Part shown: piece by piece, positions 3,186 to 40,506 of the stretch
How the letters are laid out: every line of letters begins with the position of its first letter
Position numbering within the stretch: position 1 is the stretch's first letter
From: a virus
Taxonomy: Duplodnaviria; Caudoviricetes
Length of the DNA: 53,545 nt
Virus record (IMG/VR): IMGVR_UViG_3300037248_000068
Location: 1 to 53,545 of that record
Direction: 5' to 3' (one strand)
The notes under the pieces: model-generated
Seen by the model: the letters and a program-made list of their open reading frames with translations, nothing else
Database searches by the model: none
What the model was told of the DNA's origin: nothing
Program-made: the position numbers and the translations under genes

Positions 3186-3220
3186 GGTCCCTGGCACGGG
3201 GCTGAATCGTGCCAGGGACC
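3186..3220. terminator. 13-bp GC-rich hairpin; possible terminator (U-tract on the - strand) or RNA processing element
   Basis: GGTCCCTGGCACG-9 nt-CGTGCCAGGGACC flanked by A-runs. Confidence 0.5.
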
Positions 3221-3319
3221 AAAAACCATCCGCGGGTGAAGGCGCGAATGCACCCCCCACATAGACCGACCGACTTCAAAACGCAAGCCCCGTTGCGAAA
3301 AAGCAAGACAGGCTTGCCA

Positions 3320-5380
3320 ATGCCATTTCCTAAATCGATTCAGGAATTTTGGGACGAAGCTGTACGTCGCGGCTTCTTTCCGCTCGCGATAGCGCGGGGA
3401 AGTAAAGCCCCGATCGGGGAAGGTTGGTCGACCTGGACACATCCAATTCCGCACCCGGGAGCCGGCTCTGTAGGGCTGCGTTGTGGTGACGGAGGCCTGT
3501 CCGGCTTTGATGTTGACTGTTCCCAGCCTGAAATTTCCGCTCGATTACTCGCGGCATTTCGTAACGTTCTCGGCACGACAATCCCCGTGCGGTGGGGGCG
3601 AAAGCCCCGTTTCCTGATACCGTACTTTTTAACTGACGCTCCCGTACAGGGCCGTACGTTTACTTTTGCCACAAGCGGCGAAAAATTGCAGCTCATGGGC
3701 GGACAGTTCATTGCCTTCGGGCCGCACAAGGACACCGGCCAGCCTTACGAATGGGAGAACTGGGAGAGCGAGTGGCCGCGAATCACCACGGCACAACTGC
3801 AATATATCCTGGCCGAAGTCCCGATGCGCGCGGGCACGAGCCTTCGCTTTTCCGCCGAGCACGAAACGTGCACCGCGGAGGAAATCGCGGACGCCACGCC
3901 GCGCACGCAAGACGAATGGCAAGCAGGCCGCGACGCCGCACAGCGCTACTTAGGCATGCTTAAGCAAGAGTTGCTAGGACGCACGGAGGGCCGCGGGTCG
4001 ACGATTTTTGCACTTGTCGGCGTGCTGAAATTTGCCGCCATGCACAGCATGTGTACGCGCGAGGAAATCGAGGACGCCATCATAGGCGCCGGCCACAGCC
4101 TCACGGAGGGCATCGGCGGCCGGACGCTCGGTGAGGAAGTCAACCGCCATGACGAACTGCCGGTGTTGCGCGGCAACCTTATCATGCTGGCCGTGCTCAA
4201 TCGACGCATATTAAAGCATGCTTTATTTGACGCGATGCAAGCGCCGACGCTGATCGCGCGTACGGGCTTCGAAGTATCATTAGACGACAAAAGCGATGAA
4301 CTGCCATGGTTGCTGCACCAACGCGTACTTTGCGGCGAAGTCCATTTGTTCACCGGCCACTCAGGCGCTGGCAAGTCTACCGTTGTCACGGACCTTGCAA
4401 TAAGCATGCTTTGCGGGCGCGCGTGGCTTGACGCCGACATTGAACGTGCGGACGGTCACGTGTTATGGATTGCCGCAGAAGACGCGTACGGAACAGAACG
4501 CAGGGTGCGTCACATGCTACGGCAGGAACCGAATGGCGCAGCGCTCGCCGCACGCTTTCACGTCGTTCCCGGCGTGTCGGAACCGATGGCGTTTGAGCAG
4601 CAATACGTTGCCCAAGTGCAAGCAATGGCCGCAATGAAGATGCGCGTTGACCTGGGCGTAGTCGATACGTGGGGCGCTTCCGGATTATGCTTTGCCGACA
4701 ACGATACGGAAGCCGTCCTAAAGGCGATGTTCATCCTAAAACTGGCGGCAAAGCGTACAGAGACTGCCCTGATAGTTACCGATCACTTGCCGATGGGCAA
4801 CAGCGACGCGTGGCAGAAGGGCAACGGCGCCAAAACCGGAAACAGCGGTTTTGTATACCGAATCACCGCCGGGCGGCAGGATCTCATATCGATCGACTGC
4901 GGTAAAGCGCGCGGGTGTCCCAAACCGAAAAGTTACATCGGCCGAATCGCGTCCGAAAACTACGGGGTCGACAGCAAGGGGCGCCCGACCACCGTCAATA
5001 TATTTCGGCGCGACGATACGCCGTCAACGCAAGAGCGCGAGATATCGGCCGCGCTAAAGCTGGCCGGAATGCTGCCGGGCGTCGTCGCGACGGGCATGGA
5101 CGCGCTTCGGGCCGGCAGCATTGTCAAGTTTGAAAGCGTAGCAGAACTCGGCGACAAGCTGGCTGATGACGAAGCGCCCGGATTCGTCGTCAACAAGGAC
5201 GCCGCACTAAAAATGTTTGCGAAAGAGGGCCTGGAGGGCTTGATGAACAGCGGCTATCTCCGTACAATGCGGGGCGCGCCGTTTTTCGCCATCTATTCGC
5301 CGATGAATGGCGTAAAGCATGCTTTAACAATGCCGTGGCCGATCGAAGTGCCGACACAGCCGGGAGGCTTCCCGTGGTGA
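3320..5380 (+). CDS. Primase-polymerase / RepA-like (AAA_25) helicase fusion
   Basis: N-terminal prim-pol motifs (GSKAP..GW, VGLRCG, FDVD, GPH..TG.PY.W); Walker A GHSGAGKS, Walker B VVDT; start uncertain (3209-3320). Confidence 0.85.
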   Translation: MPFPKSIQEFWDEAVRRGFFPLAIARGSKAPIGEGWSTWTHPIPHPGAGSVGLRCGDGGLSGFDVDCSQPEISARLLAAFRNVLGTTIPVRWGRKPRFLIPYFLTDAPVQGRTFTFATSGEKLQLMGGQFIAFGPHKDTGQPYEWENWESEWPRITTAQLQYILAEVPMRAGTSLRFSAEHETCTAEEIADATPRTQDEWQAGRDAAQRYLGMLKQELLGRTEGRGSTIFALVGVLKFAAMHSMCTREEIEDAIIGAGHSLTEGIGGRTLGEEVNRHDELPVLRGNLIMLAVLNRRILKHALFDAMQAPTLIARTGFEVSLDDKSDELPWLLHQRVLCGEVHLFTGHSGAGKSTVVTDLAISMLCGRAWLDADIERADGHVLWIAAEDAYGTERRVRHMLRQEPNGAALAARFHVVPGVSEPMAFEQQYVAQVQAMAAMKMRVDLGVVDTWGASGLCFADNDTEAVLKAMFILKLAAKRTETALIVTDHLPMGNSDAWQKGNGAKTGNSGFVYRITAGRQDLISIDCGKARGCPKPKSYIGRIASENYGVDSKGRPTTVNIFRRDDTPSTQEREISAALKLAGMLPGVVATGMDALRAGSIVKFESVAELGDKLADDEAPGFVVNKDAALKMFAKEGLEGLMNSGYLRTMRGAPFFAIYSPMNGVKHALTMPWPIEVPTQPGGFPW

Positions 5381-5535
5381 GAGCTTACCACAATGAAAAC
5401 AATCCGTACGCCGCTCAATGGCTCCGCAACCTCATCGCCGCCGGGCATCTACCCGCAGGCGCCCTCGGAAACGCTATCGTCCCGCAAGTCGCGGCGGAAT
5501 TTATCAAAGCGTACGGTGATGCCGTGGGAGACATG
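5377..5535 (+). pseudogene. Internally deleted C5-cytosine DNA methyltransferase
   Basis: N-terminal 'AYHNENNPYAAQWLRNLIAAGHLPAG' fused directly to motif-X 'ALGNAIVPQVAAEFIKAY'; the catalytic PC motif and target-recognition domain are absent. Confidence 0.75.
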
Positions 5536-5543
5536 ATTTGCGC

Positions 5544-5795
5544 ATGTGGGAAAACAGCGATGGACGGCGTACGGTGCAGACTGGGGACGACGCACAAAGC
5601 GCCTATGCCGTGGGGGACGCAGTTATCTACCACAGAGACGCCAACGTTATCGGCACAGTCGTCCACGTCTCAACCGTCATCAGTCCCCTTATTTCCGTGG
5701 TTTGGGACGGCAACGACGGAGAGCCGATAATATATCCCATGAATACAACGCTACTGCGGAGGGCATGGCCGTGGGAAATCGAGGAAGGATCATAG
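5544..5795 (+). CDS. Hypothetical SH3/KOW-like small protein
   Basis: GGGAG SD; 'YAVGDAVIY...GTVVHV'; ends WPWEIEEGS; start 5538 or 5544. Confidence 0.55.
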   Translation: MWENSDGRRTVQTGDDAQSAYAVGDAVIYHRDANVIGTVVHVSTVISPLISVVWDGNDGEPIIYPMNTTLLRRAWPWEIEEGS

Positions 5796-5796
5796 C

Positions 5797-5970
5797 ATGG
5801 GAGCCGCAAAAACGCTTTCCGAAGTGATTGCCGACGAAGCCGCACATCGGAAAGAAGCTCCGCGCAATCCGAAAACGCCGCCTGCAGAGCAGTTCAACAA
5901 CTTCTGCACAGAACCGCCGTGCGCTTCTGCCGCGTGCCGGAAGGCACGAAGGTGCCTGCACCATGACTGA
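5797..5970 (+). CDS. Hypothetical protein (57 aa, Cys-rich C-terminus)
   Basis: AAGGA SD, fills the gap between neighbours; C.EPPC....C....RC. Confidence 0.5.
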   Translation: MGAAKTLSEVIADEAAHRKEAPRNPKTPPAEQFNNFCTEPPCASAACRKARRCLHHD

Positions 5971-6304
5971 GGGAAAGCATGCTTTAATGCCGTGGGAGGC
6001 GCCGGCAGACGAACCGCCCGAACGGTCGCTAGAAGAAACCGTGAAAGCGCTGCAAGCGGACATGGCGTTTGCCGTACGTCACACGGCTGTCCTTGTGCGC
6101 AGTGATAACGCGCTGCTGCGAATGGTCGTCAACACGGAGCGCGGGCAGCTCATGCCGCCGGGCGCAGTCACGTTCACAGACGGAAGCACCGTTGAGTTTC
6201 AAGACATCGGCATGTGTCAACTCGGCGTCCCTACCATGACGGTGCACGAGCTGGCGAAAGCCGTGTTCAGCAAGGCGACAGAACTGGGGTTGGAAATTGC
6301 ATGA
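5963..6304 (+). CDS. Hypothetical protein (start 5963 or 5987, MPWE...)
   Basis: ORF coupled to neighbours. Confidence 0.6.
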   Translation: MTEGKHALMPWEAPADEPPERSLEETVKALQADMAFAVRHTAVLVRSDNALLRMVVNTERGQLMPPGAVTFTDGSTVEFQDIGMCQLGVPTMTVHELAKAVFSKATELGLEIA

Positions 6305-6501
6305 GTAACCAGGGGCCTTGGGAATACCGCAGAGTCGAAATAGTTGTCGTGTACTACGCATGGGACGACATGCAAGGAGTCTATTTTTCTACGGAGGACC
6401 TTACGGAGTTGCTGAGACGCAGGCGTAGAGCGAGAACCCCTTTCGGTCCTCGAGAGCCCGTGGGGGCGTACTCGGTCGGACGCGTGAAGCCCGCAACATG
6501 A
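6301..6501 (+). CDS. Hypothetical protein (66 aa)
   Basis: ATGA coupling at both ends. Confidence 0.55.
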   Translation: MSNQGPWEYRRVEIVVVYYAWDDMQGVYFSTEDLTELLRRRRRARTPFGPREPVGAYSVGRVKPAT

Positions 6502-7058
6502 CCGTCGTCGCTTCAAACTTCACCCGGTCGCCGAACGACCTGTACGAAACGGAGCCGTGGGCCGTACGTGCGTTGCTGCGCCGCCTCCCACCCGTACGCG
6601 GCCGTAAGATATGGGAGCCGGCCGCCGGCAATCACAAGATCGCGGACGTGCTGAGATGGGAGAGCGCGGACGTACTCACCTCGGATATTGTTGTGTATCG
6701 TACAAAACACGATTTCATGTTCGATTTTCTTGCAACTCCGACCGGCGGAAGCGGGGCGACCGATCGCGACATCATCACAAACCCGCCATACGGGCCGCAT
6801 AACCGCGACGCCGTAAAGTTTGCACGTTTGGCATTGCAGCGGAGCGCCGGATGGGTTGCACTCTTGCTGACTGCCAAGTTTGATTTCGGCAAAACCCGCC
6901 GCGATCTATTCGCCGATAACCCGCGTTTCGCCTTCAAAGTTGCGTTACTCGATCGCATACAGTGGTTCTCGGGTGACACCGGCACCGAAGATCACGCTTG
7001 GTATGTATGGGGGCCACTGTGGCAGCCCGCGCCACGGCTGTTTTGGGAGGGCAAATAA
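6498..7058 (+). CDS. DNA amino-methyltransferase (probably N6-adenine)
   Basis: D.YETEPW, SAM-binding WEPAAG.H, catalytic ITNPPY. Confidence 0.85.
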   Translation: MTVVASNFTRSPNDLYETEPWAVRALLRRLPPVRGRKIWEPAAGNHKIADVLRWESADVLTSDIVVYRTKHDFMFDFLATPTGGSGATDRDIITNPPYGPHNRDAVKFARLALQRSAGWVALLLTAKFDFGKTRRDLFADNPRFAFKVALLDRIQWFSGDTGTEDHAWYVWGPLWQPAPRLFWEGK

Positions 7059-7908: not shown

Positions 7909-9516
7909 GTGTTCATCCCGCGCAAACATCAGATTGAATGCGTCCAGGCGCTAACTGCGTACGATGGCCGTTTCAGCGTCGGCGAAATGTGCGTTGCATC
8001 TGGCAAGTCGGGCGTGCTTGGCATGCTGGGATCGCACTACAGTCAGCGCGGACGCGTACTGATCGTTGCGCACAATAAAGAGTTGGTAATGCAGAACGCG
8101 GAAGCCGCAAAACTGCTCGGCTTGAATCCCGGCATTTGTTCGTCCTCGATCAGCACGAACGCATTCGCCCGCGTGACTGTCGGTACGATCGGAACCGTCA
8201 TAAATCGGGTCCGTCTGTTCCGCGACGTGGCTGCGATCTTGGTTGACGAAGTACACAGAGTGCCGCCGGCCAAGTCATCGCAGTACCGCAAACTATTCGA
8301 GGCACTCCCGCACGCGAAGGTGCACGGACTTACAGGCACGCCTTTCCGCGCGGACGGAACCGGCGATCTCGAAAAGACATTCGGTCCCGTCGTTTACAGG
8401 TACGCATTCCTTGAGGCGCTTCGCGACGGCTATGTTAAGCCGTTGGTGCCCGTCGACGCTGGCGAAGATGAAACGATCGATACGGAGGGGCTTAGCACGA
8501 CGGCCGGGGACTTCGATCCTGATGAGCAAGCGTCGCGCGCAATCAAGCTCGCCCCCAGTCATGCCCGTACGATCTTGGAAGTCATGCGCAAATTCAACAG
8601 ACGCCGAGTGCTCGTGTTCTGCTGCAACATCGAACACGTCGACAAGATGGAAGCCGAACTACGCCGTCTAGGTGCAAAAGTTGTCGGCGTGCATTCCAAG
8701 TCCGTAATCGGAAAACGAGACAAGTCGGTCGAAGCATTCCGGCGCGGCGACGCGGACATACTTGTTTCCTGCAACATGTTCTCAACCGGCTTTAACGTTC
8801 CTGACATAGATTACGAAGCGTTTTGCCGCGCAACAAGATCGGCGGTATTCTACGCGCAAGGTCTAGGACGCGGCGCGCGACCAACACCGTACGCGGTCAA
8901 CTGTCTCATATCAGATTTCGGAGATAATATCAGGCGTCACGGCACACTTGACGCCGTAGTGGCGGCCCCCGGGCGCATGCTGACATGCGATGACGAAGCA
9001 TGCGACGCGGAGTGGGAAACGTGGGAGCACGGCAGGATGTGCCCCAAGTGCCGCACGCTCCACAAGAGCGCGCCGAAGTGCAAAGCATGCTTTGAACGCT
9101 TCGACCCGCACTATCACGGCATGCGCTGTCCGCACTGCGGCGCTCAACAGGCAGCCATAAAACAGTGTGCCGCGTGCGAACAGCCGTACGCGGCGTTTCT
9201 GCATCCGATCTGCCCGTTCTGCCAGTTTGACAATAGCTCCGTACAGTCGCCCGGCAAGGAACTGAACACGCGCGGGGGCGAGCACGAAGCCGTCAACGTG
9301 CGAAATATCATTGAAGCCGAACCGTGGCAAGCTGTAGTGTTGCCGCCAGTTAAGATGAATGGTAGCGGGTGGATGCTCACGACAAAGTACACGACGGCTC
9401 TGTGGCCCTATGAAGTGCTTCCGCAGCCGCACTCAGTCTACCTCAAAAGGTCGCCGAACGGTCGTTACGTCGCGGCGGGAATTTACGACGTAAATGGGCA
9501 GGTGCACCAACGCTAA
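7909..9516 (+). CDS. SF2 DExH helicase (RadD/YejH-like) with tandem C-terminal Zn ribbons
   Basis: ASGKS, DEVH, TGTP, STGFNVP, QGLGRGAR; six CxxC-type pairs. Confidence 0.9.
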   Translation: MFIPRKHQIECVQALTAYDGRFSVGEMCVASGKSGVLGMLGSHYSQRGRVLIVAHNKELVMQNAEAAKLLGLNPGICSSSISTNAFARVTVGTIGTVINRVRLFRDVAAILVDEVHRVPPAKSSQYRKLFEALPHAKVHGLTGTPFRADGTGDLEKTFGPVVYRYAFLEALRDGYVKPLVPVDAGEDETIDTEGLSTTAGDFDPDEQASRAIKLAPSHARTILEVMRKFNRRRVLVFCCNIEHVDKMEAELRRLGAKVVGVHSKSVIGKRDKSVEAFRRGDADILVSCNMFSTGFNVPDIDYEAFCRATRSAVFYAQGLGRGARPTPYAVNCLISDFGDNIRRHGTLDAVVAAPGRMLTCDDEACDAEWETWEHGRMCPKCRTLHKSAPKCKACFERFDPHYHGMRCPHCGAQQAAIKQCAACEQPYAAFLHPICPFCQFDNSSVQSPGKELNTRGGEHEAVNVRNIIEAEPWQAVVLPPVKMNGSGWMLTTKYTTALWPYEVLPQPHSVYLKRSPNGRYVAAGIYDVNGQVHQR

Positions 9517-10117: not shown

Positions 10118-11059
10118 ATGAGCAAGCACGAAATCTTCGCCGCGTCATCAGCCGCCACATGGCTTGAATGCTCGTGGTCCGCGTTGCACGACGTACCGGA
10201 GCCCCTCAGGAAGGCAAGCACGATCACCGCCGCGGAAGCCGGAACCGAGGCGCATGTTGACGTAGAGGAAGGCGACATCTCCGAAGTTGAGTCCTTCGTC
10301 GGACAGCTCGAAAACCCTGCGTCTACGGTGCGCGAATTCCGCGTGCTACTCGCCGACAACTGCGGCGGTACAGTCGATTTATTTTCGCACAACGCCCGCA
10401 TTGCGACCGTCATTGACGCCAAATTCGGCAAGTGGGACGTTGCAGCCTTCCACAACAAACAGCTTTTGACCTACGCTGCCGCACTGCTGGCAAGCTGTCC
10501 GGCCGAATGGTGGCGGCTCGTGATCTACCAGCCGAACGGGCTGGACGAAGAGCCTTGGAAACAGTGGATTGCGCACCGCTCCGAAGTGGAAGCGCACCGG
10601 CAGCGCGTCTTACGCGCTATCATGGACCGCAGCGCTCCCAAGCCCGGTCCGCACTGCCGTTGGTGTAAAGCTTTCCAGGCGTGCCCCGCAATGACGACCG
10701 ACGCCGGTTTCGTCATGGGCGCAATGACGCGCCGGGTTGAGGACCTGACGACGGAAGAACTTACGCGGCTGTTGCGGCTGATTCGTGCGCTCGGCGATGT
10801 CAAGGAAGTGTACGAAGATGCGCTTACGGTAAAATTGAAGTTAGGGTACACGGCAGAAGGCGTGTCGCTGAAGCCAGGCCGCGCTTGGCGCCAGTGGAAT
10901 GACGCAATTCAGGCGGCAGAATACGGTCACTTACACTACGGCCCGAAAGGGGTTAAGGCCCTGTCGCCAGCACAATTCGAAAAGCTTGGACCGGCAGGCA
11001 AGCAGTATGCGGCAGTTGCGTCGCACAAACCTGAGGCGTCCTACAAGGCACACTATTAA
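10118..11059 (+). CDS. DUF2800 / Cas4-like PD-(D/E)xK exonuclease
   Basis: H...SSA.TW.EC, GT.AH, GTVD, ID.KFG, QLLTY, PG.HCRWC...AC. Confidence 0.85.
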   Translation: MSKHEIFAASSAATWLECSWSALHDVPEPLRKASTITAAEAGTEAHVDVEEGDISEVESFVGQLENPASTVREFRVLLADNCGGTVDLFSHNARIATVIDAKFGKWDVAAFHNKQLLTYAAALLASCPAEWWRLVIYQPNGLDEEPWKQWIAHRSEVEAHRQRVLRAIMDRSAPKPGPHCRWCKAFQACPAMTTDAGFVMGAMTRRVEDLTTEELTRLLRLIRALGDVKEVYEDALTVKLKLGYTAEGVSLKPGRAWRQWNDAIQAAEYGHLHYGPKGVKALSPAQFEKLGPAGKQYAAVASHKPEASYKAHY

Positions 11060-11060
11060 A

Positions 11061-11189
11061 ATGAGTGACGCCGGGCTCCGTAACTATCGGTGTTGTGCAA
11101 ACTGCAATTTGAGAAAAGGCGACAAGTCACCGGTAGAGTTTACAAACTGGCAACTGAAACTACCTACATTCTGGAAAGAAGGAAACTGA
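11061..11189 (+). pseudogene. HNH endonuclease C-terminal remnant
   Basis: Only 'CCANCNLRKGDKSPVEF' remains; AT-richer than its flanks. Confidence 0.55.
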
Positions 11190-11192
11190 CAA

Positions 11193-12059
11193 ATGGCACA
11201 ACGTCAATACGAGCCTGCTACGGTGTTTAACGCGAGAATCGCCGATCTTCGTCATCTTTGGGTTCCAAGTGACCAATATAAAGGCCAAAAAACTACCAAA
11301 CCAAACTACTTCGCAATGTTTCTCGTGAAAAAGACGCAAGCGACGTGGTACGCCGAGCCAGCGCTGGCCGGAGTCGCGCAAGCGTGCGGAAGAATTTACC
11401 AGAACAACCCGCATATTTTGCAGTGGCCTGTCGTCGACGGTGACATGCCGAGCCCGGAAGGCAAGTCATCCGAGTTCGCCAAGGGGCATTGGCTGTTTTC
11501 CGGTTCCAGCGGCAACCCGCCCAACGTCGAAATCGTGCAAGCCGGCGGGGCGCTCGTGAAGCTGACGAACAAAGTCGGTGTGAAATCCGGCGATTACGTG
11601 ATGTGCGGCGTGACAGCCGCTGTCAAGCAGAACGACCCGCGCGGCGTCAAGCTGTATCTGAACGCCGTCGTGTTCTCCAGCCCGGGCGAAGAAATCGTGT
11701 TTGCCAGCTCCGTCAGCGGCGCCGAACTGATGCAACAGGCGGCACGGCAAGGGCTCCAGGTTGCGGGCTTCGCACCTGGGGGCGGGTTTGCTCCGCAGCA
11801 AGGCGGCTTCCCGCCTCCGAACTACGATACGCGACACCCCGGCATCGGGGGCGGTCCGGCAAGCGGACCCGCGGGGGCGCCGGGTTTTACCCCTGGGGGG
11901 TTCGCCCCGCCTCCGGGACCTGCGCAAGCGGGCTTCGGTGCCGCTACGGCTGCCCCGGGCCAATTCCAGCCTCCGGGACCTGGATTTGCGGGGACGATAT
12001 CCCCTTCTAACCCAGCGCCGGGGCAGTTCACGCCGCCTGCGTGGCCGCAACAGCGCTGA
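11193..12059 (+). CDS. ssb: Single-stranded DNA-binding protein (DUF2815/Enc34-like) with Pro/Gly/Phe low-complexity tail
   Basis: P.VDGD, G.W.FS.SS..PP, SG.Y, GVKLYLNAV; lies between DUF2800 and PolA. Confidence 0.8.
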   Translation: MAQRQYEPATVFNARIADLRHLWVPSDQYKGQKTTKPNYFAMFLVKKTQATWYAEPALAGVAQACGRIYQNNPHILQWPVVDGDMPSPEGKSSEFAKGHWLFSGSSGNPPNVEIVQAGGALVKLTNKVGVKSGDYVMCGVTAAVKQNDPRGVKLYLNAVVFSSPGEEIVFASSVSGAELMQQAARQGLQVAGFAPGGGFAPQQGGFPPPNYDTRHPGIGGGPASGPAGAPGFTPGGFAPPPGPAQAGFGAATAAPGQFQPPGPGFAGTISPSNPAPGQFTPPAWPQQR

Positions 12060-12083
12060 TGACGTGCCGCCGGCAGTGAAAGC

Positions 12084-12812
12084 ATGCTTTTCCTTGGCGA
12101 CTGCTTGGACATCATGCCGACGCTGCTGGCAGCTTCCGTTGATTTGATCCTGTGCGATCTTCCATACGGGACGACGCAAAATAAATGGGATAGCGTAATT
12201 CCGCTAGACCGGCTTTGGCGGGAATACTGGCGCATAGCGAAACCAAACGCGGCAGTCGTACTTACGGCACAGACGCCTTTTGACAAGGTGCTTGGCACGT
12301 CACAACTGTCGAAACTGCGGTATGAATGGATATGGGAAAAGACCGCCGGTACGGGGTTTCTAAACGCCGCCAAGATGCCAATTAAAGTTCACGAGAACGT
12401 CTTGGTGTTCTACGCACAGTTGCCGACGTACAATCCGCAAAAGACGGCGGGCCACGTTATCAAGCGTGTTAACGTGGCGCGATCGAGCGGCAGCAAAAAT
12501 TACAACATAATAAACGTGCGAAAGCCTTATGAAAGCACTGAACGGTTCCCGCGCTCCGTAATAGTGGTTGCTAAAGATAACCGACTTGCCGAAGATACGC
12601 ATCCCACGCAAAAGCCCGTCGCGCTCATGGAGTACCTAATCCGTACATACACCAACGAAGGTGATGCCGTGCTCGATAACTGCATGGGCAGCGGTACGAC
12701 GGGCGTTGCGTGTAACAACACGGGCCGCAAATTTATCGGCATAGAGCGCGATCCGACGTACTTCGAAATCGCACGCAAGCGCATCGAACCGTACCCGTGG
12801 GAAATGCCGTGA
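12084..12812 (+). CDS. DNA methyltransferase, beta-class N4/N6
   Basis: GDCL, DLPYG, HPTQKP, LDNCMGSGTTG. Confidence 0.92.
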   Translation: MLFLGDCLDIMPTLLAASVDLILCDLPYGTTQNKWDSVIPLDRLWREYWRIAKPNAAVVLTAQTPFDKVLGTSQLSKLRYEWIWEKTAGTGFLNAAKMPIKVHENVLVFYAQLPTYNPQKTAGHVIKRVNVARSSGSKNYNIINVRKPYESTERFPRSVIVVAKDNRLAEDTHPTQKPVALMEYLIRTYTNEGDAVLDNCMGSGTTGVACNNTGRKFIGIERDPTYFEIARKRIEPYPWEMP

Positions 12813-14743
12813 TTCCCGATAGCCTCCTAGTCGATGTCGAGACGCGCTCCCGCGTCGACCTGCGCAGCGCGGGCGCGCGGCGTTATTCTGCCGACCCGTC
12901 AACGCAAATCACGACGGCCACATGGCACTACCGCGGTCAGCTAAAGACGGCGTGCACCGTACATCCGCACTTAGGCACGCATCCCATAACCGCGCTATAC
13001 GATGACATTCGGGCTTGCAGTCGGTTCGTGGCACACCACGCGAATTTCGACGTAAACGTGCTTCGTCGACAAAATCCTTTCGCGGAAATTCCGCTCTCAA
13101 AAATCGATTGCACGATGGCGCGGGCTCAGTGCCTCGCGCTCCCCGGCGGCCTTGACGAAGTGTGCACCACGCTCGGCATTAAAGGCAAAGACCCGCGCGG
13201 TCGCGCGCTCGTAATGGCGACGTGCCGCCCGCAACGCGACGGCACTTTTAACGAGAACGTACAGACGTTCCGCGAGCTGCTAGAATACAACGTACAAGAT
13301 ACGCGGTGTTTGATTGAAGTCGACGCGCGCTTGCCACCGCTGTCCGCCGACGAACGACTGATCTTTGAGCGCACGTGGCGCAAGAACGAAATCGGGTTGC
13401 CGATCGATATTGAATTAGCCACCGCAATTGCGCTCCGTCGTCAAGAAATAGAGCAAGAGAGTACCGCAGCACTGATGGAGTTGACAAACAACGCCGTCAC
13501 CAAGCTATCGCAGCGCCAGCGCATAATCGAATGGTGCAACAGCGGCAACCGCGCTGCCGGCCTGGAGAGCACGCAAAAGCACATCGTTGCGGAAAAGCTT
13601 GCCGATGAGAATTTGCATCCCGACGTACGGATTGTTTTGGAGTTGTTGCAAGCCGAAGGCGGTTCCGCCCCGCTGAAAGCGCAAGCCTTGCTCGATAGGC
13701 ACGTCGGCGGATGGTACAAGGATGCGACGCGATACTTCGGAGCGCGGTCGGGCCGCGGCACGTCCGAAGGTGCCAACATGTTCAATATAGCAAGACCGTC
13801 CGGCAAGTACGATGGGCAGGACGGCCGCCCGACGATCGACAGCGTAATTCATGGGCTTAAACAAGGATTCCGGTACGGCAACACGGCGTTGACTGACTGC
13901 TTGCGAAGCACGATCGTAGCACCGCAAGGGTGGATGGTTTGCGACAACGACTTGTCAGGCGCGGAGTACCGTCTCGCCATGTGGATGGCCGGCGATACCG
14001 AACGGTTAAAAGTGTTGGCAACCGGCGACAATCCGTACATATACAACGCTATCAAAATGGGCGGGTGGCCCGAAGGATGGACCAAAAATAATCACTTGAA
14101 AGAATACACCATATACAAAAATGTCACGCTCGGCGGTAACTACCAGCTAGGCTGGAAAACTTTTCTAGCTCACATGCGCAAAGGCGGCATGGGTATAGAC
14201 GAAGTTAAAGCCCGATCCAGCATCGACGGGTATCGGCAGGCAAATCCGTTGCTCGTGCAGCTATGGTACGATCTTGCGGACGCATTCAAATTCGCGATCT
14301 ATGAAGCGCCTGGCCGCATCTTTCCTGCCGGTAAGATCGCATTCCAGAAAGACGCGCACGGAACTGTATGGATGCTGCTTCCATCTGGCCGTGCCGTACC
14401 GCACTACTCGGCGCATATCACGTACAACGGCGAAATGGCGTTCTTCCGGGGCAAGTACGGCGCCATGCTGCGGCAAAAGGCGTTTGGTGGATCGCTTCTG
14501 GAGATCGCTTGCCAGTCGATGACGCGAGACTTAGTAACGGCCGCAGAAGCCGACATTGAACGCGAGCTGCCCGACGCGGTGCTTTTGCTGGACGTGTATG
14601 ATAGCATACTAGCGCTGGCGCGGGGGGACGTAGCGAAAGAGCGCTCGGCGCAGATGCGCGAAATCATGAAGCGCCCGCGACCATGGACGGCGGGGCTGCC
14701 GCTGGGGTGTGAAGGCTATGAATCAGAAAGGATGAGGAAATAA
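12809..14743 (+). CDS. polA: Family A DNA polymerase with 3'-5' exonuclease
   Basis: Exo DVETRS / H.ANFD / YNVQD; motif A DLSGAEYR; motif B KNVTLGGNY (Leu762 type); motif C VYDS. Confidence 0.9.
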   Translation: MIPDSLLVDVETRSRVDLRSAGARRYSADPSTQITTATWHYRGQLKTACTVHPHLGTHPITALYDDIRACSRFVAHHANFDVNVLRRQNPFAEIPLSKIDCTMARAQCLALPGGLDEVCTTLGIKGKDPRGRALVMATCRPQRDGTFNENVQTFRELLEYNVQDTRCLIEVDARLPPLSADERLIFERTWRKNEIGLPIDIELATAIALRRQEIEQESTAALMELTNNAVTKLSQRQRIIEWCNSGNRAAGLESTQKHIVAEKLADENLHPDVRIVLELLQAEGGSAPLKAQALLDRHVGGWYKDATRYFGARSGRGTSEGANMFNIARPSGKYDGQDGRPTIDSVIHGLKQGFRYGNTALTDCLRSTIVAPQGWMVCDNDLSGAEYRLAMWMAGDTERLKVLATGDNPYIYNAIKMGGWPEGWTKNNHLKEYTIYKNVTLGGNYQLGWKTFLAHMRKGGMGIDEVKARSSIDGYRQANPLLVQLWYDLADAFKFAIYEAPGRIFPAGKIAFQKDAHGTVWMLLPSGRAVPHYSAHITYNGEMAFFRGKYGAMLRQKAFGGSLLEIACQSMTRDLVTAAEADIERELPDAVLLLDVYDSILALARGDVAKERSAQMREIMKRPRPWTAGLPLGCEGYESERMRK

Positions 14744-15254: not shown

Positions 15255-15763
15255 ACGAACAAGGTCTAGGCCGCTTCCTGATCCGCGACATCGGGCCGGA
15301 CGAAGGTGCAAAGGTGTTCGCGCTGACCGGCGACCGTACGGTGATGCGCTACATGGGGTTCCGCGCGCACGACTGCGTGAAAGACGCGACTGACCTGATA
15401 GCGACGTACCGCAATTCGCCGTCGAAGTGGCAGGCCGTGTGCGAGGACGGGGATCCCGCGGACATTCTCGGAATCGTCGGTTTCGAAGTCCAGGGGCACC
15501 AAGCGGCCGTAACGATCATGTTCCGCCGCGATTGGAAAGCGCGCGGCGCCGGCCGTGAATTCTCCGTGCCGTTCGTTCGATGGATTTTCACGCATCCGCA
15601 AATCTGGCGCGTGTGGGCGTACTGCCATCCCAGCAACACAGCCGTACAACGCGTCCTAGAGCGCATGGGCGCCGAGCGCGAGGGGCGGTTGCGGCGGTTC
15701 GCAATCTATCCGAACATCAGCTCGGAACCGCAAGACGCGTACGTATACGGCATCGTAAAATGA
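15251..15763 (+). CDS. GNAT N-acetyltransferase (RimJ/RimL-like)
   Basis: V.RYMG, ARGAGRE acetyl-CoA loop, RVWAYCHPSN.A..RVLER.G..REG.LR. Confidence 0.9.
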   Translation: MNEQGLGRFLIRDIGPDEGAKVFALTGDRTVMRYMGFRAHDCVKDATDLIATYRNSPSKWQAVCEDGDPADILGIVGFEVQGHQAAVTIMFRRDWKARGAGREFSVPFVRWIFTHPQIWRVWAYCHPSNTAVQRVLERMGAEREGRLRRFAIYPNISSEPQDAYVYGIVK

Positions 15764-16269
15764 GATGGCATCTTTCCCACCGCGCGGACCCGCTAGTGGC
15801 GCCGCTTGCTGACAGGCACTATAGCCGGCAGAAAATCGGTTCTCCGCAGTTCGTTCCGCCGGGACGTTGCGTCGTGCTGCATTCGGACTGCCGACGTGCG
15901 TTTTGGGTTACTTCATGGCCTTTTGCCGAGTACGTAAAACATGCATGGGGTGGGGCCTGGATATGCAGTGCCTTTCGATCTGAGAACGCCGGCAACGCGA
16001 CTGAATTAATTACGGACGCCGTTGCTGCAACGCGTGCGGCGTACGGCGAATCGCCGCAGCAAGGCATGGTTACATTCATCGACAGTCGAAAAGTAGAACC
16101 TATTATGACGCATGGCGTTCCATCATTCGGCCGTACGTGGGTAAAAGCGGGTTTTAAGTACGCCGGAAAGACGGCCGCGGGGCTTCTGGTATTTCAACTG
16201 CAGCCGGCGGATATGCCGCTGCCATCTTCGGCGCTCCCGCGTAATCCGTTTCCGTGGCCCGTACGCTAG
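15760..16269 (+). CDS. Conserved phage protein, possible Mom/GNAT-like DNA-modifying enzyme
   Basis: LADRHYSR...QFVPPGR, CSAFRSE, G.VTFID..KV, W.KAGF..G.T; function inferred. Confidence 0.55.
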   Translation: MRWHLSHRADPLVAPLADRHYSRQKIGSPQFVPPGRCVVLHSDCRRAFWVTSWPFAEYVKHAWGGAWICSAFRSENAGNATELITDAVAATRAAYGESPQQGMVTFIDSRKVEPIMTHGVPSFGRTWVKAGFKYAGKTAAGLLVFQLQPADMPLPSSALPRNPFPWPVR

Positions 16270-23185: not shown

Positions 23186-25138
23186 ATGCCCATGCAACGC
23201 CTCCCAACCCTCAAATTTGATGTTGGCGATCCGGAATCGTTCGGCAACTTGGCCGAAAAGATGGACGTGGAGGAACGCCGGTCTCTCGCGGACGAATTGA
23301 TTATGCTGATTGGCATAGACGAACAGTCGATGGGCGACTGGCTGAGTGAAGCAAACGGCTATCTTGACGCCGTAACGGCGGAAGGGAACATTGCCAAGCC
23401 GCAGGACCGCGAGCAGGAAGGGTCCAACGAGGGTGAGCCGCCGTCTACCGAAATGACACTCTCTGCCGTGATTCAATTCTCGGCGCGCGCCACTGACGCG
23501 CTACTTGGCGAACCCGACCTAGCCAAAGCAAGCGAACCAGACGGCGAAGCGCTCGCAGAGTGGGTATCCAGCCAACTCCGTACGCGGGACCCGAATTGGA
23601 CGCTAGACACTGATCCGCTAGTTGTGCACATGGCCGTGACGGGGCTGGCATGGCGCAAGCGGTCTTTCAGCATTGAAGACAGAGTTTTTCGTTCGTATTT
23701 CCGTACGTGCGGGGACGTCATCATAAACAGCAACGTACGGTCAGTTGAGCGCGCACCGCGCATCACGGATCAATTCGAGCACTATCCGTACGAAATCGAG
23801 CGCTCGATTGAGCGCGGTCATTGGGTTGACTACGACCCCCAATACGACGAAAACGACCCTCAGGCGCCGAAACGATTTTACGAGTGTGATTGCTGGCTTG
23901 ATTTAGACGGCGATGAAATCGACGAGCCATGGACCGCGCTCATATCGCGGGACGACATGGCGGAAGTCGTCAAGCTTACGCCGCTGTGGTCCAAGAGCAC
24001 CGTCGTTGACAGCGACGAAGCGCTGTTTTTCAACCCAATACGCCGGTTCTATCCGTACAGATTCTTGCCGGACCCCAAAGGCGGTTTCTTCCCGATGGGT
24101 TTCGGTAAGCTGCTAGCCCGGGTTGAAAATTCGGCCGATCGGTTGTTTGCTTCGATCGTGGACACTGCAAAGAGCGAAAGCGAGAACGGCGGCGTAGTCG
24201 GCGGTAGCCAGTTCGGACTGCCGGATAAGATCGAAATCAAGGGCAACCGAATCACGTCAATCCCCACGGACGGCACCCCGCTGGATAAGCTGTGGTCGCC
24301 GTTCCCGCAAAAGTCGGTTTCCGCCGGTTCCGTGCAGGTGCTTGAAAAGATCATGACGCTCGGCGACCGGCTGGCCGGGACGTTGAACCTACTGGAGAAC
24401 GCCCCCGCATCGATGACGGCAACGATGGCCCGCGGCGTCATCGACAGCGGCACGCAAGTTCAGAGTGCCGTACACCGCCGCATGGTTGCGTCAATGACGC
24501 AAGAGTTCCGCATGTTCGTACAAATGGCCGCGGCGTACGACATGCTGCCCGAAGGCATGCAAGCTGACGCAAACGGCGTAGCGGTCACGGCAGACCCGCA
24601 ACTCGCCACCGAAATGCACCGCTCCGCACTGGCGGGCATCTACATGCAGATGCTGGAGATGGGCGCGAAAGTACCCGGCAGCTTCAGTATTCAGGAAGTA
24701 GTAAAACGTCTCTGCATGACGCTGCGCCTCCCCGACCCGGAAAAGCTGATCGGCCAGCCGCCGGAACCACAAGCTACGCCGAAAGAAAAGCTTGACGGCG
24801 CTGTGGCGTTGATGAAACAGAAGACCGAAAGTATCAAGGTCACAGGCGCCGTAGCTGTACAGCTTACGCAAGCGCTCAAAAACTTGGTCGAGGCGAGCGG
24901 CGGCATGCTTGACAACAAGGCTGCGTTGCTGACCATGGCGCAACTTGAACATGCCGTACAGCAGATGATGCAGGGAGCGGGCGATGCGGGAACAAGCATG
25001 GACGGAGTGGCTGGCCAGCCCGGAAACGCGGGCACTCCTGGCGTACCTCCGCAGGCGTCGGGACCCGGTGGTGGCGCTTCTGTTCTCGGGGGCGGAAGTG
25101 CCCCCGGTGACGCAGGGGCGGGCAGTGGCTTATCATGA
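23186..25138 (+). CDS. Portal protein
   Basis: 650 aa; 'D..SM.DW', 'A.IQF.ARA', 'Y.FLP...GF..MGFG', followed by GroES and scaffold genes. Confidence 0.8.
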   Translation: MPMQRLPTLKFDVGDPESFGNLAEKMDVEERRSLADELIMLIGIDEQSMGDWLSEANGYLDAVTAEGNIAKPQDREQEGSNEGEPPSTEMTLSAVIQFSARATDALLGEPDLAKASEPDGEALAEWVSSQLRTRDPNWTLDTDPLVVHMAVTGLAWRKRSFSIEDRVFRSYFRTCGDVIINSNVRSVERAPRITDQFEHYPYEIERSIERGHWVDYDPQYDENDPQAPKRFYECDCWLDLDGDEIDEPWTALISRDDMAEVVKLTPLWSKSTVVDSDEALFFNPIRRFYPYRFLPDPKGGFFPMGFGKLLARVENSADRLFASIVDTAKSESENGGVVGGSQFGLPDKIEIKGNRITSIPTDGTPLDKLWSPFPQKSVSAGSVQVLEKIMTLGDRLAGTLNLLENAPASMTATMARGVIDSGTQVQSAVHRRMVASMTQEFRMFVQMAAAYDMLPEGMQADANGVAVTADPQLATEMHRSALAGIYMQMLEMGAKVPGSFSIQEVVKRLCMTLRLPDPEKLIGQPPEPQATPKEKLDGAVALMKQKTESIKVTGAVAVQLTQALKNLVEASGGMLDNKAALLTMAQLEHAVQQMMQGAGDAGTSMDGVAGQPGNAGTPGVPPQASGPGGGASVLGGGSAPGDAGAGSGLS

Positions 25139-39864: not shown

Positions 39865-40506
39865 TCATATGCTGTGCTCATCTTCGGCCGTATACAACGG
39901 ATTCAGCGTCACGGTAACGACGGACGGAACGCTTTGCAAACCCAGTTCGCTGATAAGCGTTCCGGCAACGTTGGAAACCGGCGTCGCCAGCACGTATTCA
40001 TCCACAAGACCCGCGACTATCAACTGCGTCGAATTGCTGTACGCGGCCTGCGCACCTTCGCCAAACAAGCCGAGCGGAAACACAAAACCAGCGCCCGCTA
40101 CGGCAATCGTTGTCGTCGGGCCGTTCCCACTTTCCGGCCAAGTCCCGCTTGCGTTCTTTGGCCCGTAAATCGACGGCTGTAAACCGTAGTTGCCAAAACC
40201 CGCCCATGACAAGCAATAATCGCCAGTAACGCCGATACTGTCATCCGGCAGCGACGTGCTGAACCACTTCAATTGCGCCTGGTACGTAGGTGGTACGGCG
40301 AAAAGATAATGGCCCCACGGATCGACCCCGCCGCCTGCATCATTGGACCGCTTGGTATGCAGAACCCATGCCGCGGTGTCGATGTACAAATCACCGACTA
40401 GGCCGCCTTGCGGCACCGGCGGCCCGGTCCCGCGCAAAATCGAGCCGAACTGTTTGGCCTGAGAATAGACGCCACCTTGCGCCGTCCCGTTGTCGAAGCC
40501 AGTCAC
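39865..40506 (-). CDS. Virion protein with 'G.G.P....G..GD.Y.D' repeats
   Basis: Motif typical of fibre/decoration proteins; tandem paralog. Confidence 0.75.
   Translation of the reverse strand: MTGFDNGTAQGGVYSQAKQFGSILRGTGPPVPQGGLVGDLYIDTAAWVLHTKRSNDAGGGVDPWGHYLFAVPPTYQAQLKWFSTSLPDDSIGVTGDYCLSWAGFGNYGLQPSIYGPKNASGTWPESGNGPTTTIAVAGAGFVFPLGLFGEGAQAAYSNSTQLIVAGLVDEYVLATPVSNVAGTLISELGLQSVPSVVTVTLNPLYTAEDEHSI

Follow-up and report, generated by a model that had tools for sequence, protein, structure and literature searches.

A phage single-stranded DNA-binding protein gene with two conserved C-terminal tips in overlapping reading frames and a predicted programmed −1 frameshift

The IMG/VR record IMGVR_UViG_3300037248_000068 represents a complete virus (Duplodnaviria; Caudoviricetes) of 53,545 bases with direct terminal repeats, rated 100% complete and containing 59% G+C; the whole of this stretch, positions 1 to 53,545, is referred to as the window. 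We describe here its gene encoding an SSB (single-stranded DNA-binding protein), in which the annotated frame (frame 0) and the overlapping −1 frame specify two different C-terminal tips. The coordinates of the gene and its features are collected in Table 1. The SSB protein matched Pfam PF10991 (Enc34_ssDNA-bd, formerly DUF2815) over residues 20-168 (E 1e-8; 35.5 bits, the cut-off being 26) as well as phrog_112, the gp2.5-like SSB family. A sequence search of the PDB with the protein gave zero matches, whereas a search by fold did give matches: AlphaFold2 (AF2) modelled residues 1-190 with a predicted local distance difference test score (pLDDT) of 90.1, and Foldseek with this model ranked the DUF2815 structure 4klk best (E 1.5e-9), also matched the DUF2815 structure 4jg2, and matched Enc34 ORF6 (5odk, 5odl and 5odj; approximately 5e-8) and T7 gp2.5 (1je5; 2.5e-5). 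By these two analyses the protein has the modified OB fold of Enc34 ORF6 and gp2.5. The gene at 11193-12059 is hence classed as encoding an SSB of the Enc34/T7-gp2.5 type, with binding to single-stranded DNA (ssDNA) as its predicted activity. The OB domain of bacterial SSB, PF00436, had no match across the 53,545-base record, and was matched in 10 of 14 control genomes.

Table 1. Features of the SSB gene in the window; open reading frame (ORF) and minimum free energy (MFE) are abbreviated.
Feature	Position	Strand	Basis
SSB gene, frame 0 (288 aa and TGA stop)	11193..12059	+	ORF list, PF10991, phrog_112
OB-fold core (residues 20-168, Pfam match)	11250..11696	+	Pfam, AF2 and Foldseek
G_GGT_TTT, slippery heptamer whose X_XXY_YYZ phase fits frame 0 (Gly231-Phe232); candidate site of the −1 shift	11882..11888	+	sequence, homologues
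−1-frame tail, 40 codons (YPWG...GDDIPF), predicted to be read after the shift	11888..12007	+	translation, −1 peptide alignment
GGGG-TTCG-CCCC hairpin, 4 bp, 8 nt past the heptamer	11897..11908	+	sequence; similar local stem in the MFE fold
Four conserved −1-frame Cys codons (TGC: 11921-23, 11939-41, 11951-53, 11987-89)	11921..11989	+	Cys columns
G-run GCG-GGG-ACG, second candidate site (rejected)	11988..11996	+	not conserved
−1-frame tip DDIPF and TAA stop (GAC GAT ATC CCC TTC TAA)	11993..12010	+	frame-0 shadow TISPSN
Frame-0 tip WPQQR and TGA stop	12042..12059	+	conserved in homologous proteins

In frame 0 the protein ends in ...GFAGTISPSNPAPGQFTPPAWPQQR (also written ...GTISPSNPAPGQFTPPAWPQQR). 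The frame-0 tail (residues ~191-288) is rich in Pro, Gly and Ala and non-acidic, with a single Asp as the one acidic residue in ~98, and closes on WPQQR; the annotated frame is without an acidic disordered C-terminal tail. An acidic/aromatic tip, GDDIPF-stop, is present in the −1 frame only, where it forms an Asp-rich ...IPF-COOH end. A first-pass annotation, made from the letters of the window, had pointed to this hidden ending, to two candidate shift sites and to a hairpin; all of the features that it named were found where it had placed them, and translation confirmed the −1 DDIPF-stop.

The −1 DDIPF-stop is neither a product of chance nor an assembly error. Over 11638-12300, contigs of two public DNA sequencing runs showed 0 differences and 0 gaps; the initial annotation had proposed that the reads be checked for an indel. 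One of these runs is possibly the record's own source and the other belongs to a different sample and study. The comparison was made at the level of contigs, at which rare variants would escape notice, and no RNA run was listed as containing the sequence; assembly error is effectively excluded by the identical sequence in an independent sample. Chance was evaluated by recoding the frame-0 peptide of the window with synonymous codons, drawn from the OB-domain codon usage of the clade, in 2000 trials. A −1-frame PF-stop ending arose in 0.35% of the trials and at least four −1-frame Cys in 1.5%. When the 26 heptamer-bearing sequences described below were recoded, the mean rate was 0.5% of trials for a PF-stop ending and 4% for the observed number of Cys. 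That the −1 frame is open says little in a linker so rich in GC, as 67% of recodings keep it open.

Homologues were first assessed as proteins. Among 304 matches we considered the best 120, which range from 52 to 100% identity and include the window's own protein; all of them come from metagenomes or metagenome-assembled genomes, many on contigs of 50-54 kb. None of these 120 ends in frame in DDIPF, and the ending of 107 of them is [F/W]x(1-3)R. A frame-0 tetrapeptide of the form [SFYC][PLHR][SF][NKSRDE], mostly FPSN, SPFS, FPSS or SPFN, is found among the final 70 residues in 108 of the 120, which is the form that an [IV]-P-F-stop in the −1 frame would impose on frame 0; the count for a control stretch of the OB domain was 0/120. 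The earlier proposal to look in homologues for an internal shadow resembling T[IT]SPS, with both frames conserved, was thus borne out, at the DNA level also by the −1-synonymous variation reported below. No match to this SSB was obtained among 50,697 cultured-phage records searched by tblastn, and contigs of species genomes yielded zero relatives.

For analysis at the DNA level, 20 viral-contig and 26 metagenome loci (designated by L numbers) were retrieved. After removal of identical tails, of the 3′-truncated loci L030, L037, L043 and L044, of the 5′-truncated and unevaluated L020, and of the frame-broken L045, 31 unique intact tails remained, the window's included. A −1-frame [I/V/T]PF-stop is present in 28 of these 31, located 19-55 nt before the frame-0 stop. 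The three tails without it, L022, L028 and L038, have retained a frame-0 tip (NPFAPR, GPFSPR and NPFAQR). Two of them, L022 (2091-2230) and L038 (2130-2215), lack the −1 IPF-stop and yet carry an in-phase GGGTTTT and a −1 ORF with four Cys and another ending; frameshifting may persist there with an altered tip.

The codons of the −1 frame vary among homologues in a manner that preserves the −1 peptide at the expense of the frame-0 residue. The −1 Ile is encoded by ATC, ATA or ATT (frame-0 residue Ser, Tyr or Phe), the −1 Pro by CCC, CCA or CCG (Pro, His or Arg), the −1 Phe by TTC or TTT (Ser or Phe) and the −1 Glu by GAA or GAG (Asn or Ser), and the stop codons TAA, TAG and TGA are all used (Asn, Ser or Asp). 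In L034, ATC CCG TTC TGA keeps the DIPF-stop intact while the frame-0 motif has become TSRSD. Alignment of the −1 peptides brings out the common pattern GFY..G.R..C-P-x(4-5)-C-x(3-5)-C-x(8-13)-(W)xC-x(0-3)-[IV]PF, of which C-x(0-3)-[IV]PF is the consensus tip of the clade. Among the residues present in −1 Cys columns 1 to 4, Cys accounts for 22/24, 26/26, 23/24 and 25/25, respectively. Each TGC or TGT takes its T from a frame-0 codon that without exception ends in T, although the residue of this codon is variable (P, N, F, S, G or A); background usage of T-ending codons in the OB domain is 7.9% for P (CCT), 20% for G, 22% for N and 27% for F.

Conservation of the three frames differed between domain and tail. 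In the OB domain, mean pairwise identity was 0.76 in frame 0, 0.45 in the −1 frame and 0.46 in the +1 frame, placing frame 0 far above −1. In the tail, aligned with either the −1 or the frame-0 peptide as guide, the corresponding values were 0.51/0.515, 0.54/0.48 and 0.42/0.39, i.e. conservation in the −1 frame roughly equalled that in frame 0 and exceeded that in +1. Column entropy at codon positions 1/2/3 was 0.46/0.38/1.13 in the OB domain and flat in the overlap (0.89/0.79/0.99; −1-guided alignment). From these comparative patterns, the overlapping −1 ORF is judged to be under purifying selection at the protein level. Four −1 tails searched against Pfam at E up to 10 hit zero families, and the ESM Atlas had no usable match to the −1 tail. 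Where the gene ends, the last eight frame-0 codons gave entropies of 1.09/1.09/1.61 at positions 1/2/3; there the Pro, Phe and Arg codons vary synonymously among homologues and all three stop codons are found. The frame-0 tail, which had been considered functional at first inspection, therefore has an end conserved with synonymous variation, and the comparison of homologues shows both frames of the SSB tail to be under purifying selection.

The heptamer G-GGT-TTT, one of the two sites put forward in the first-pass annotation, proved to be conserved in phase. It occurs as in-phase GGGTTTT in 26 of the 28 unique homologues with a −1 PF-stop, and in a further one, L006, this place is taken by C_CCT_TTC, which precedes the PF-stop by 39 codons. 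Counted by phase in 27 of the 28 tails (L046 is left out, as its fragment starts outside the counted range), GGGTTTT had 26 occurrences in the slippery phase, compared with a single one in the two remaining phases. The heptamer lies 24-51 codons from the PF-stop, mostly 36-43 (26 of the 28), and the −1 frame is open between them in 25 of 26 cases, the exception being L001. The 10 codons preceding the heptamer are poorly conserved in every frame, with no start codon conserved among homologues in the −1 frame of this segment; conservation starts at the heptamer, which is translated as Gly-Phe in either frame. The other proposed site, the G-run, was rejected, since most homologues read GGT GGG AAT GCG ACA at this place. 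Its expected product, ...GFAGDDIPF, was rejected as well, given that −1 conservation, including the four Cys, begins ~40 codons upstream. As a separate observation, L001 (2130-2225; the tail of L021 is identical) has a TGA at Cys1 (frame 0 TTT GAC) and no Cys3, and its downstream GFRWECDIPF-stop is intact; this layout could reflect a truncated shifted product, recent decay, or read-through of the stop or selenocysteine at the Cys position.

We also searched for elements that might stimulate a shift. The hairpin noted at first inspection is real and well spaced, beginning 8 nt after the heptamer, but its role as a stimulator is unproven, and it did not hold up as a conserved element. RNAalifold on the homologous sequences found no shared structure; a 109-nt segment of the window folds no better than shuffled sequences (z = +0.76), and folds computed sequence by sequence for 26 homologues had a mean z of -0.93 and differed from one another. 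A hairpin of at least 5 bp located 5-9 nt downstream was found for 11 of 26 heptamers versus 429 of 1542 control positions (28%). Upstream of the heptamer, no motif resembling a Shine-Dalgarno (SD) sequence was common to the homologues.

More distant relatives indicate where the tip may have come from. Searching exhaustively and without a profile, we obtained 66 representatives for the OB domain (E up to 0.001). In those with 33-40% identity, the in-frame ending is SDDIPF, NDDIPF, DDNIPF, DPDIPF, GKIPF or KPPF, and the outgroup loci L047 and L051-L053 have an in-frame DPF, APF, VPF or TPF end and no heptamer. At 60% identity, L054 has the heptamer and, in the −1 frame, the Cys pattern and a VPF-stop; L050 has lost both the heptamer and the −1 tip. 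A quick tree of poor resolution places the two-frame layout in all ingroup subclades, with a scattered distribution of the sequences that lack it. These data fit a scenario in which an ancestral in-frame IPF tip moved to the −1 frame at the base of the clade, followed by a small number of losses. The L054 gene (1201-2199; 332 aa) has in addition three frame-0 FPSN/YPSN shadows, read in the −1 frame as VPF-stop, IPFE and IPF-stop, and its tip-encoding unit appears to be duplicated.

Three proteins were considered as in-frame fusions of SSB and −1 tail and rejected: P0149 is a 107-aa fragment from a 1444-nt contig in which the SSB reading frame is broken by apparent indels, and P0057 and P0143 hop between frames and are probable assembly errors. 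Hopping between frame 0 and the −1 tail is seen in all three and in L045, and P0057 runs GGF-YAAGR...CPGP in one ORF. All four look like assemblies with several indels; P0057 may be a natural in-frame fusion at the heptamer.

We judge with good confidence, from comparative sequence, that programmed −1 ribosomal frameshifting gives rise to two SSB isoforms, as the first-pass annotation had inferred; purifying selection on both tails and the conserved slippery heptamer support this prediction. Standard decoding would produce the 288-aa protein, composed of the OB fold, a long non-acidic Pro/Gly/Ala-rich linker and the WPQQR end. At G_GGU_UUU a fraction of ribosomes would slip back by one base through tandem slippage, with tRNA-Gly in the P site exchanging GGU for GGG and tRNA-Phe in the A site exchanging one UUU for another. 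The slipped ribosomes would read 40 codons in the −1 frame and release a protein of 272 aa (232 + 40) with the four conserved Cys and DDIPF-COOH. A modest shift efficiency would be expected because no stimulator was found. The four Cys of the −1 tail may bind metal, and each tip may have partners of its own, in one case the replisome of the phage or SSB clients of the host and in the other something else, so that the isoform ratio would tune SSB function. By analogy with the tails of Enc34 ORF6 and T7 gp2.5, the IPF form would be the one that recruits partners, be they of the phage or, as the first-pass annotation proposed, of the host. It appears fairly likely that the same holds for this clade of uncultured soil phages (~50-54 kb) in general, i.e. 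that a frameshift in the SSB linker provides two tips, one Cys4 (probably metal-binding)/IPF and the other non-acidic [F/W]x1-3R, and that their ratio sets the partners.

Several alternatives were weighed against frameshifting at the heptamer. Entry into the −1 frame by other recoding or at another site, be it the G-run, a second GGT-TTC ('GFGG') or transcriptional slippage, is unlikely. In many homologues there is indeed an additional in-phase G_GGT_TTC, separated from the stop by 9-11 codons, and a later entry would be needed in L001, with its −1 stop after the first heptamer, and in L013, which has no heptamer. However, close to the G-run of the window the sequence is T GGA TTT G and not a canonical heptamer, and the four −1-conserved Cys, lying upstream of the later sites, require entry before Cys1. 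Runs of four T or four G are short for slippage by RNA polymerase, and the contigs showed no length heterogeneity. It is decidedly unlikely that the −1 ORF is translated alone from an internal start, without any frameshift, to yield a small Cys-rich IPF peptide that might act, for example, as a decoy for SSB-tail-binding proteins. The −1 segment is clearly selected and in most homologues its frame is open far upstream (80-190 codons), but the variable residues and the missing conserved start in the 10 preceding −1 codons, the onset of conservation exactly at an in-phase heptamer where both frames give Gly-Phe, and the presence of the IPF tip on SSB itself in distant relatives all speak against a separate peptide.

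It is very improbable that the −1 IPF-stop remains, without being translated, from an in-frame tail of the ancestor that a frameshift mutation displaced, or that it is an element acting at the nucleotide level (RNA or DNA). The in-frame IPF tip proposed for the ancestor and the loss of the tip in some lineages (L022, L028, L038 and L050) would agree with a relic; a relic would not, however, retain −1-synonymous variation, three different stops and four Cys across sequences whose OB domains are 60-89% identical to the window's. As to a nucleotide element, neither RNA structure nor covariation nor an Rfam family was found in the homologue folds and the Rfam scan of the window. An indel from assembly or sequencing that hides an ordinary in-frame DDIPF tail is effectively refuted. 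One extra G in the G-run would indeed place ...AGDDIPF-stop in frame, yet the second sample and study gave the identical contig sequence, 27 other unique homologues from many assemblies have the two-frame layout, and the frame-0 end is conserved past the −1 stop.

Frameshifting at the heptamer also has points to be set against it. The slippage mechanism is predicted from comparative sequence, and neither a conserved downstream RNA structure nor a consistent upstream SD-like element accompanies the heptamer among homologues. L013 has an IPF-stop without the heptamer and with two −1 stops, L001 has a TGA at the Cys1 column, between heptamer and IPF, and L022, L028, L038 and L050 are without an IPF-stop. 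A profile search and an inspection of longer proteins brought up no reliable homologue in which the SSB and the Cys/IPF tail form one reading frame. For the 42-aa −1 tail, AF2 with a 20-row alignment gave a model of low confidence (pLDDT 60) and no usable fold for the Cys4 segment. Owing to the relatedness of the sequences, a large share of them from soil metagenomes of a similar kind, the counts given above represent non-independent events.

The SSB gene is located in a replication module together with genes for a primase-helicase (3209-5377), a helicase (7909-9513), a DUF2800/PD-(D/E)XK exonuclease (10118-11059), a methyltransferase (12084-12812) and a family-A polymerase (PolA; 12797-14743). 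Three methyltransferase-like ORFs (phrog_363, phrog_799 and phrog_67) lie in this module, at 5335-7055 and 12084-12812 of the window, which suggests heavy self-methylation of the phage DNA. Elsewhere in the ORFs of the window, in-frame GGGTTT[TC] occurs 4 times in phase and 4 times out of phase, numbers too small to speak of avoidance. One in-phase GGGTTTT, at nt 306 of an unannotated ORF of the structural region (39868-40506, minus strand), is followed by an open −1 extension of 65 codons; in the ORFs 15580-16266 and 23186-25135, the in-phase GGGTTT[TC] meets a −1 stop within 0-1 codons. The intergenic region 5′ of the SSB gene comprises 133 nt (11060-11192). In other phages, a regulatory DUF2815-associated non-coding RNA has been described upstream of such genes (bioRxiv 10.64898/2026.10.21.760695). 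Scanning the window with Rfam at the gathering threshold detected zero families, the DUF2815-associated RNA motif upstream of the SSB gene included, and near this gene there was a sub-threshold chance match to IRES_Bip alone.

Programmed −1 frameshifting is itself well known. In the Escherichia coli dnaX gene, the tau and gamma products are generated by a −1 slip at an X_XXY_YYZ heptamer, A_AAA_AAG, assisted by an upstream SD-like element and a downstream hairpin. Like the SSB gene in the proposed reading, dnaX is a replication gene with two isoforms that have a common N-terminal functional domain and differ in a C-terminal partner-binding part. The two cases differ in that the shifted ribosome stops almost at once on dnaX, giving a truncated product, whereas on the SSB gene the shift would add a conserved tail of 40 residues; moreover, the SSB heptamer is G_GGU_UUU with no stimulator found, and that of dnaX is A_AAA_AAG with two stimulators. 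The tail assembly chaperone genes G/GT of double-stranded DNA phages use programmed −1 frameshifting across divergent phages, often without a strong stimulator. They resemble the SSB gene in combining a conserved heptamer with an overlapping ORF and, as predicted for the SSB, in a shifted product with another C-terminal module. G/GT is, however, a structural or assembly gene, while here the gene is a replication SSB and the overlap falls in a disordered linker with ~40 dual-coding codons.

Bacterial SSB docks its partner proteins through a C-terminal tip, ...DDDIPF. The DDIPF-COOH of the predicted −1 product resembles this tip, as do the in-frame SDDIPF and NDDIPF of distant relatives, which would serve likewise in docking. 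Unlike the bacterial tip, the ending of most clade members is CDIPF, CVPF or CIPF with few acidic residues, and client binding is putative. Enc34 ORF6, DUF2815 proteins and T7 gp2.5 are similar to the SSB in having an OB fold and a disordered C-terminal tail. In PMC5686142, acidic in-frame tails are described for Enc34 ORF6 and T7 gp2.5, serving ssDNA specificity and contacts with polymerase or helicase, and the preferential binding of ssDNA by Enc34 ORF6 is studied by electrophoretic mobility shift assay or similar. The tails of Enc34 and T7, as described there, are acidic and in frame, whereas the in-frame tail of the window's SSB ends in Arg and an SSB-like tip is found for it in the −1 frame, preceded by a Cys-rich segment.

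A literature search, supplements excluded, found no published frameshifting in an SSB gene or a phage SSB tail, and the accessible parts of PMC5686142 and bioRxiv 10.64898/2026.10.21.760695 make no mention of a frameshift. What would be new, as predicted from the sequence comparison, is programmed −1 frameshifting acting on the interaction tip of a phage SSB through a long dual-coding linker. If true, this would be the first recoding-controlled SSB tail, with a stretch of ~40 codons in which both frames are functional. It also bears on annotation: all 120 homologues listed as the best of 304, the window's protein included, are called in frame 0 only, and the canonical tip of the family is invisible in current annotations for this reason.

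The C-terminal tips of SSBs are recruitment hubs for proteins of replication, repair and recombination. Defence systems, too, sense the SSBs of phages and the tails of these proteins; an example is DRT4, which a DUF2815-type phage SSB triggers (bioRxiv 10.64898/2026.10.21.760695). The SSB region of this phage presents a clean natural case of long dual coding in a low-complexity linker. A frameshift that switches the tip would, if true, provide a new way to regulate or diversify the SSB hub from one gene, in parallel to tau and gamma of dnaX.

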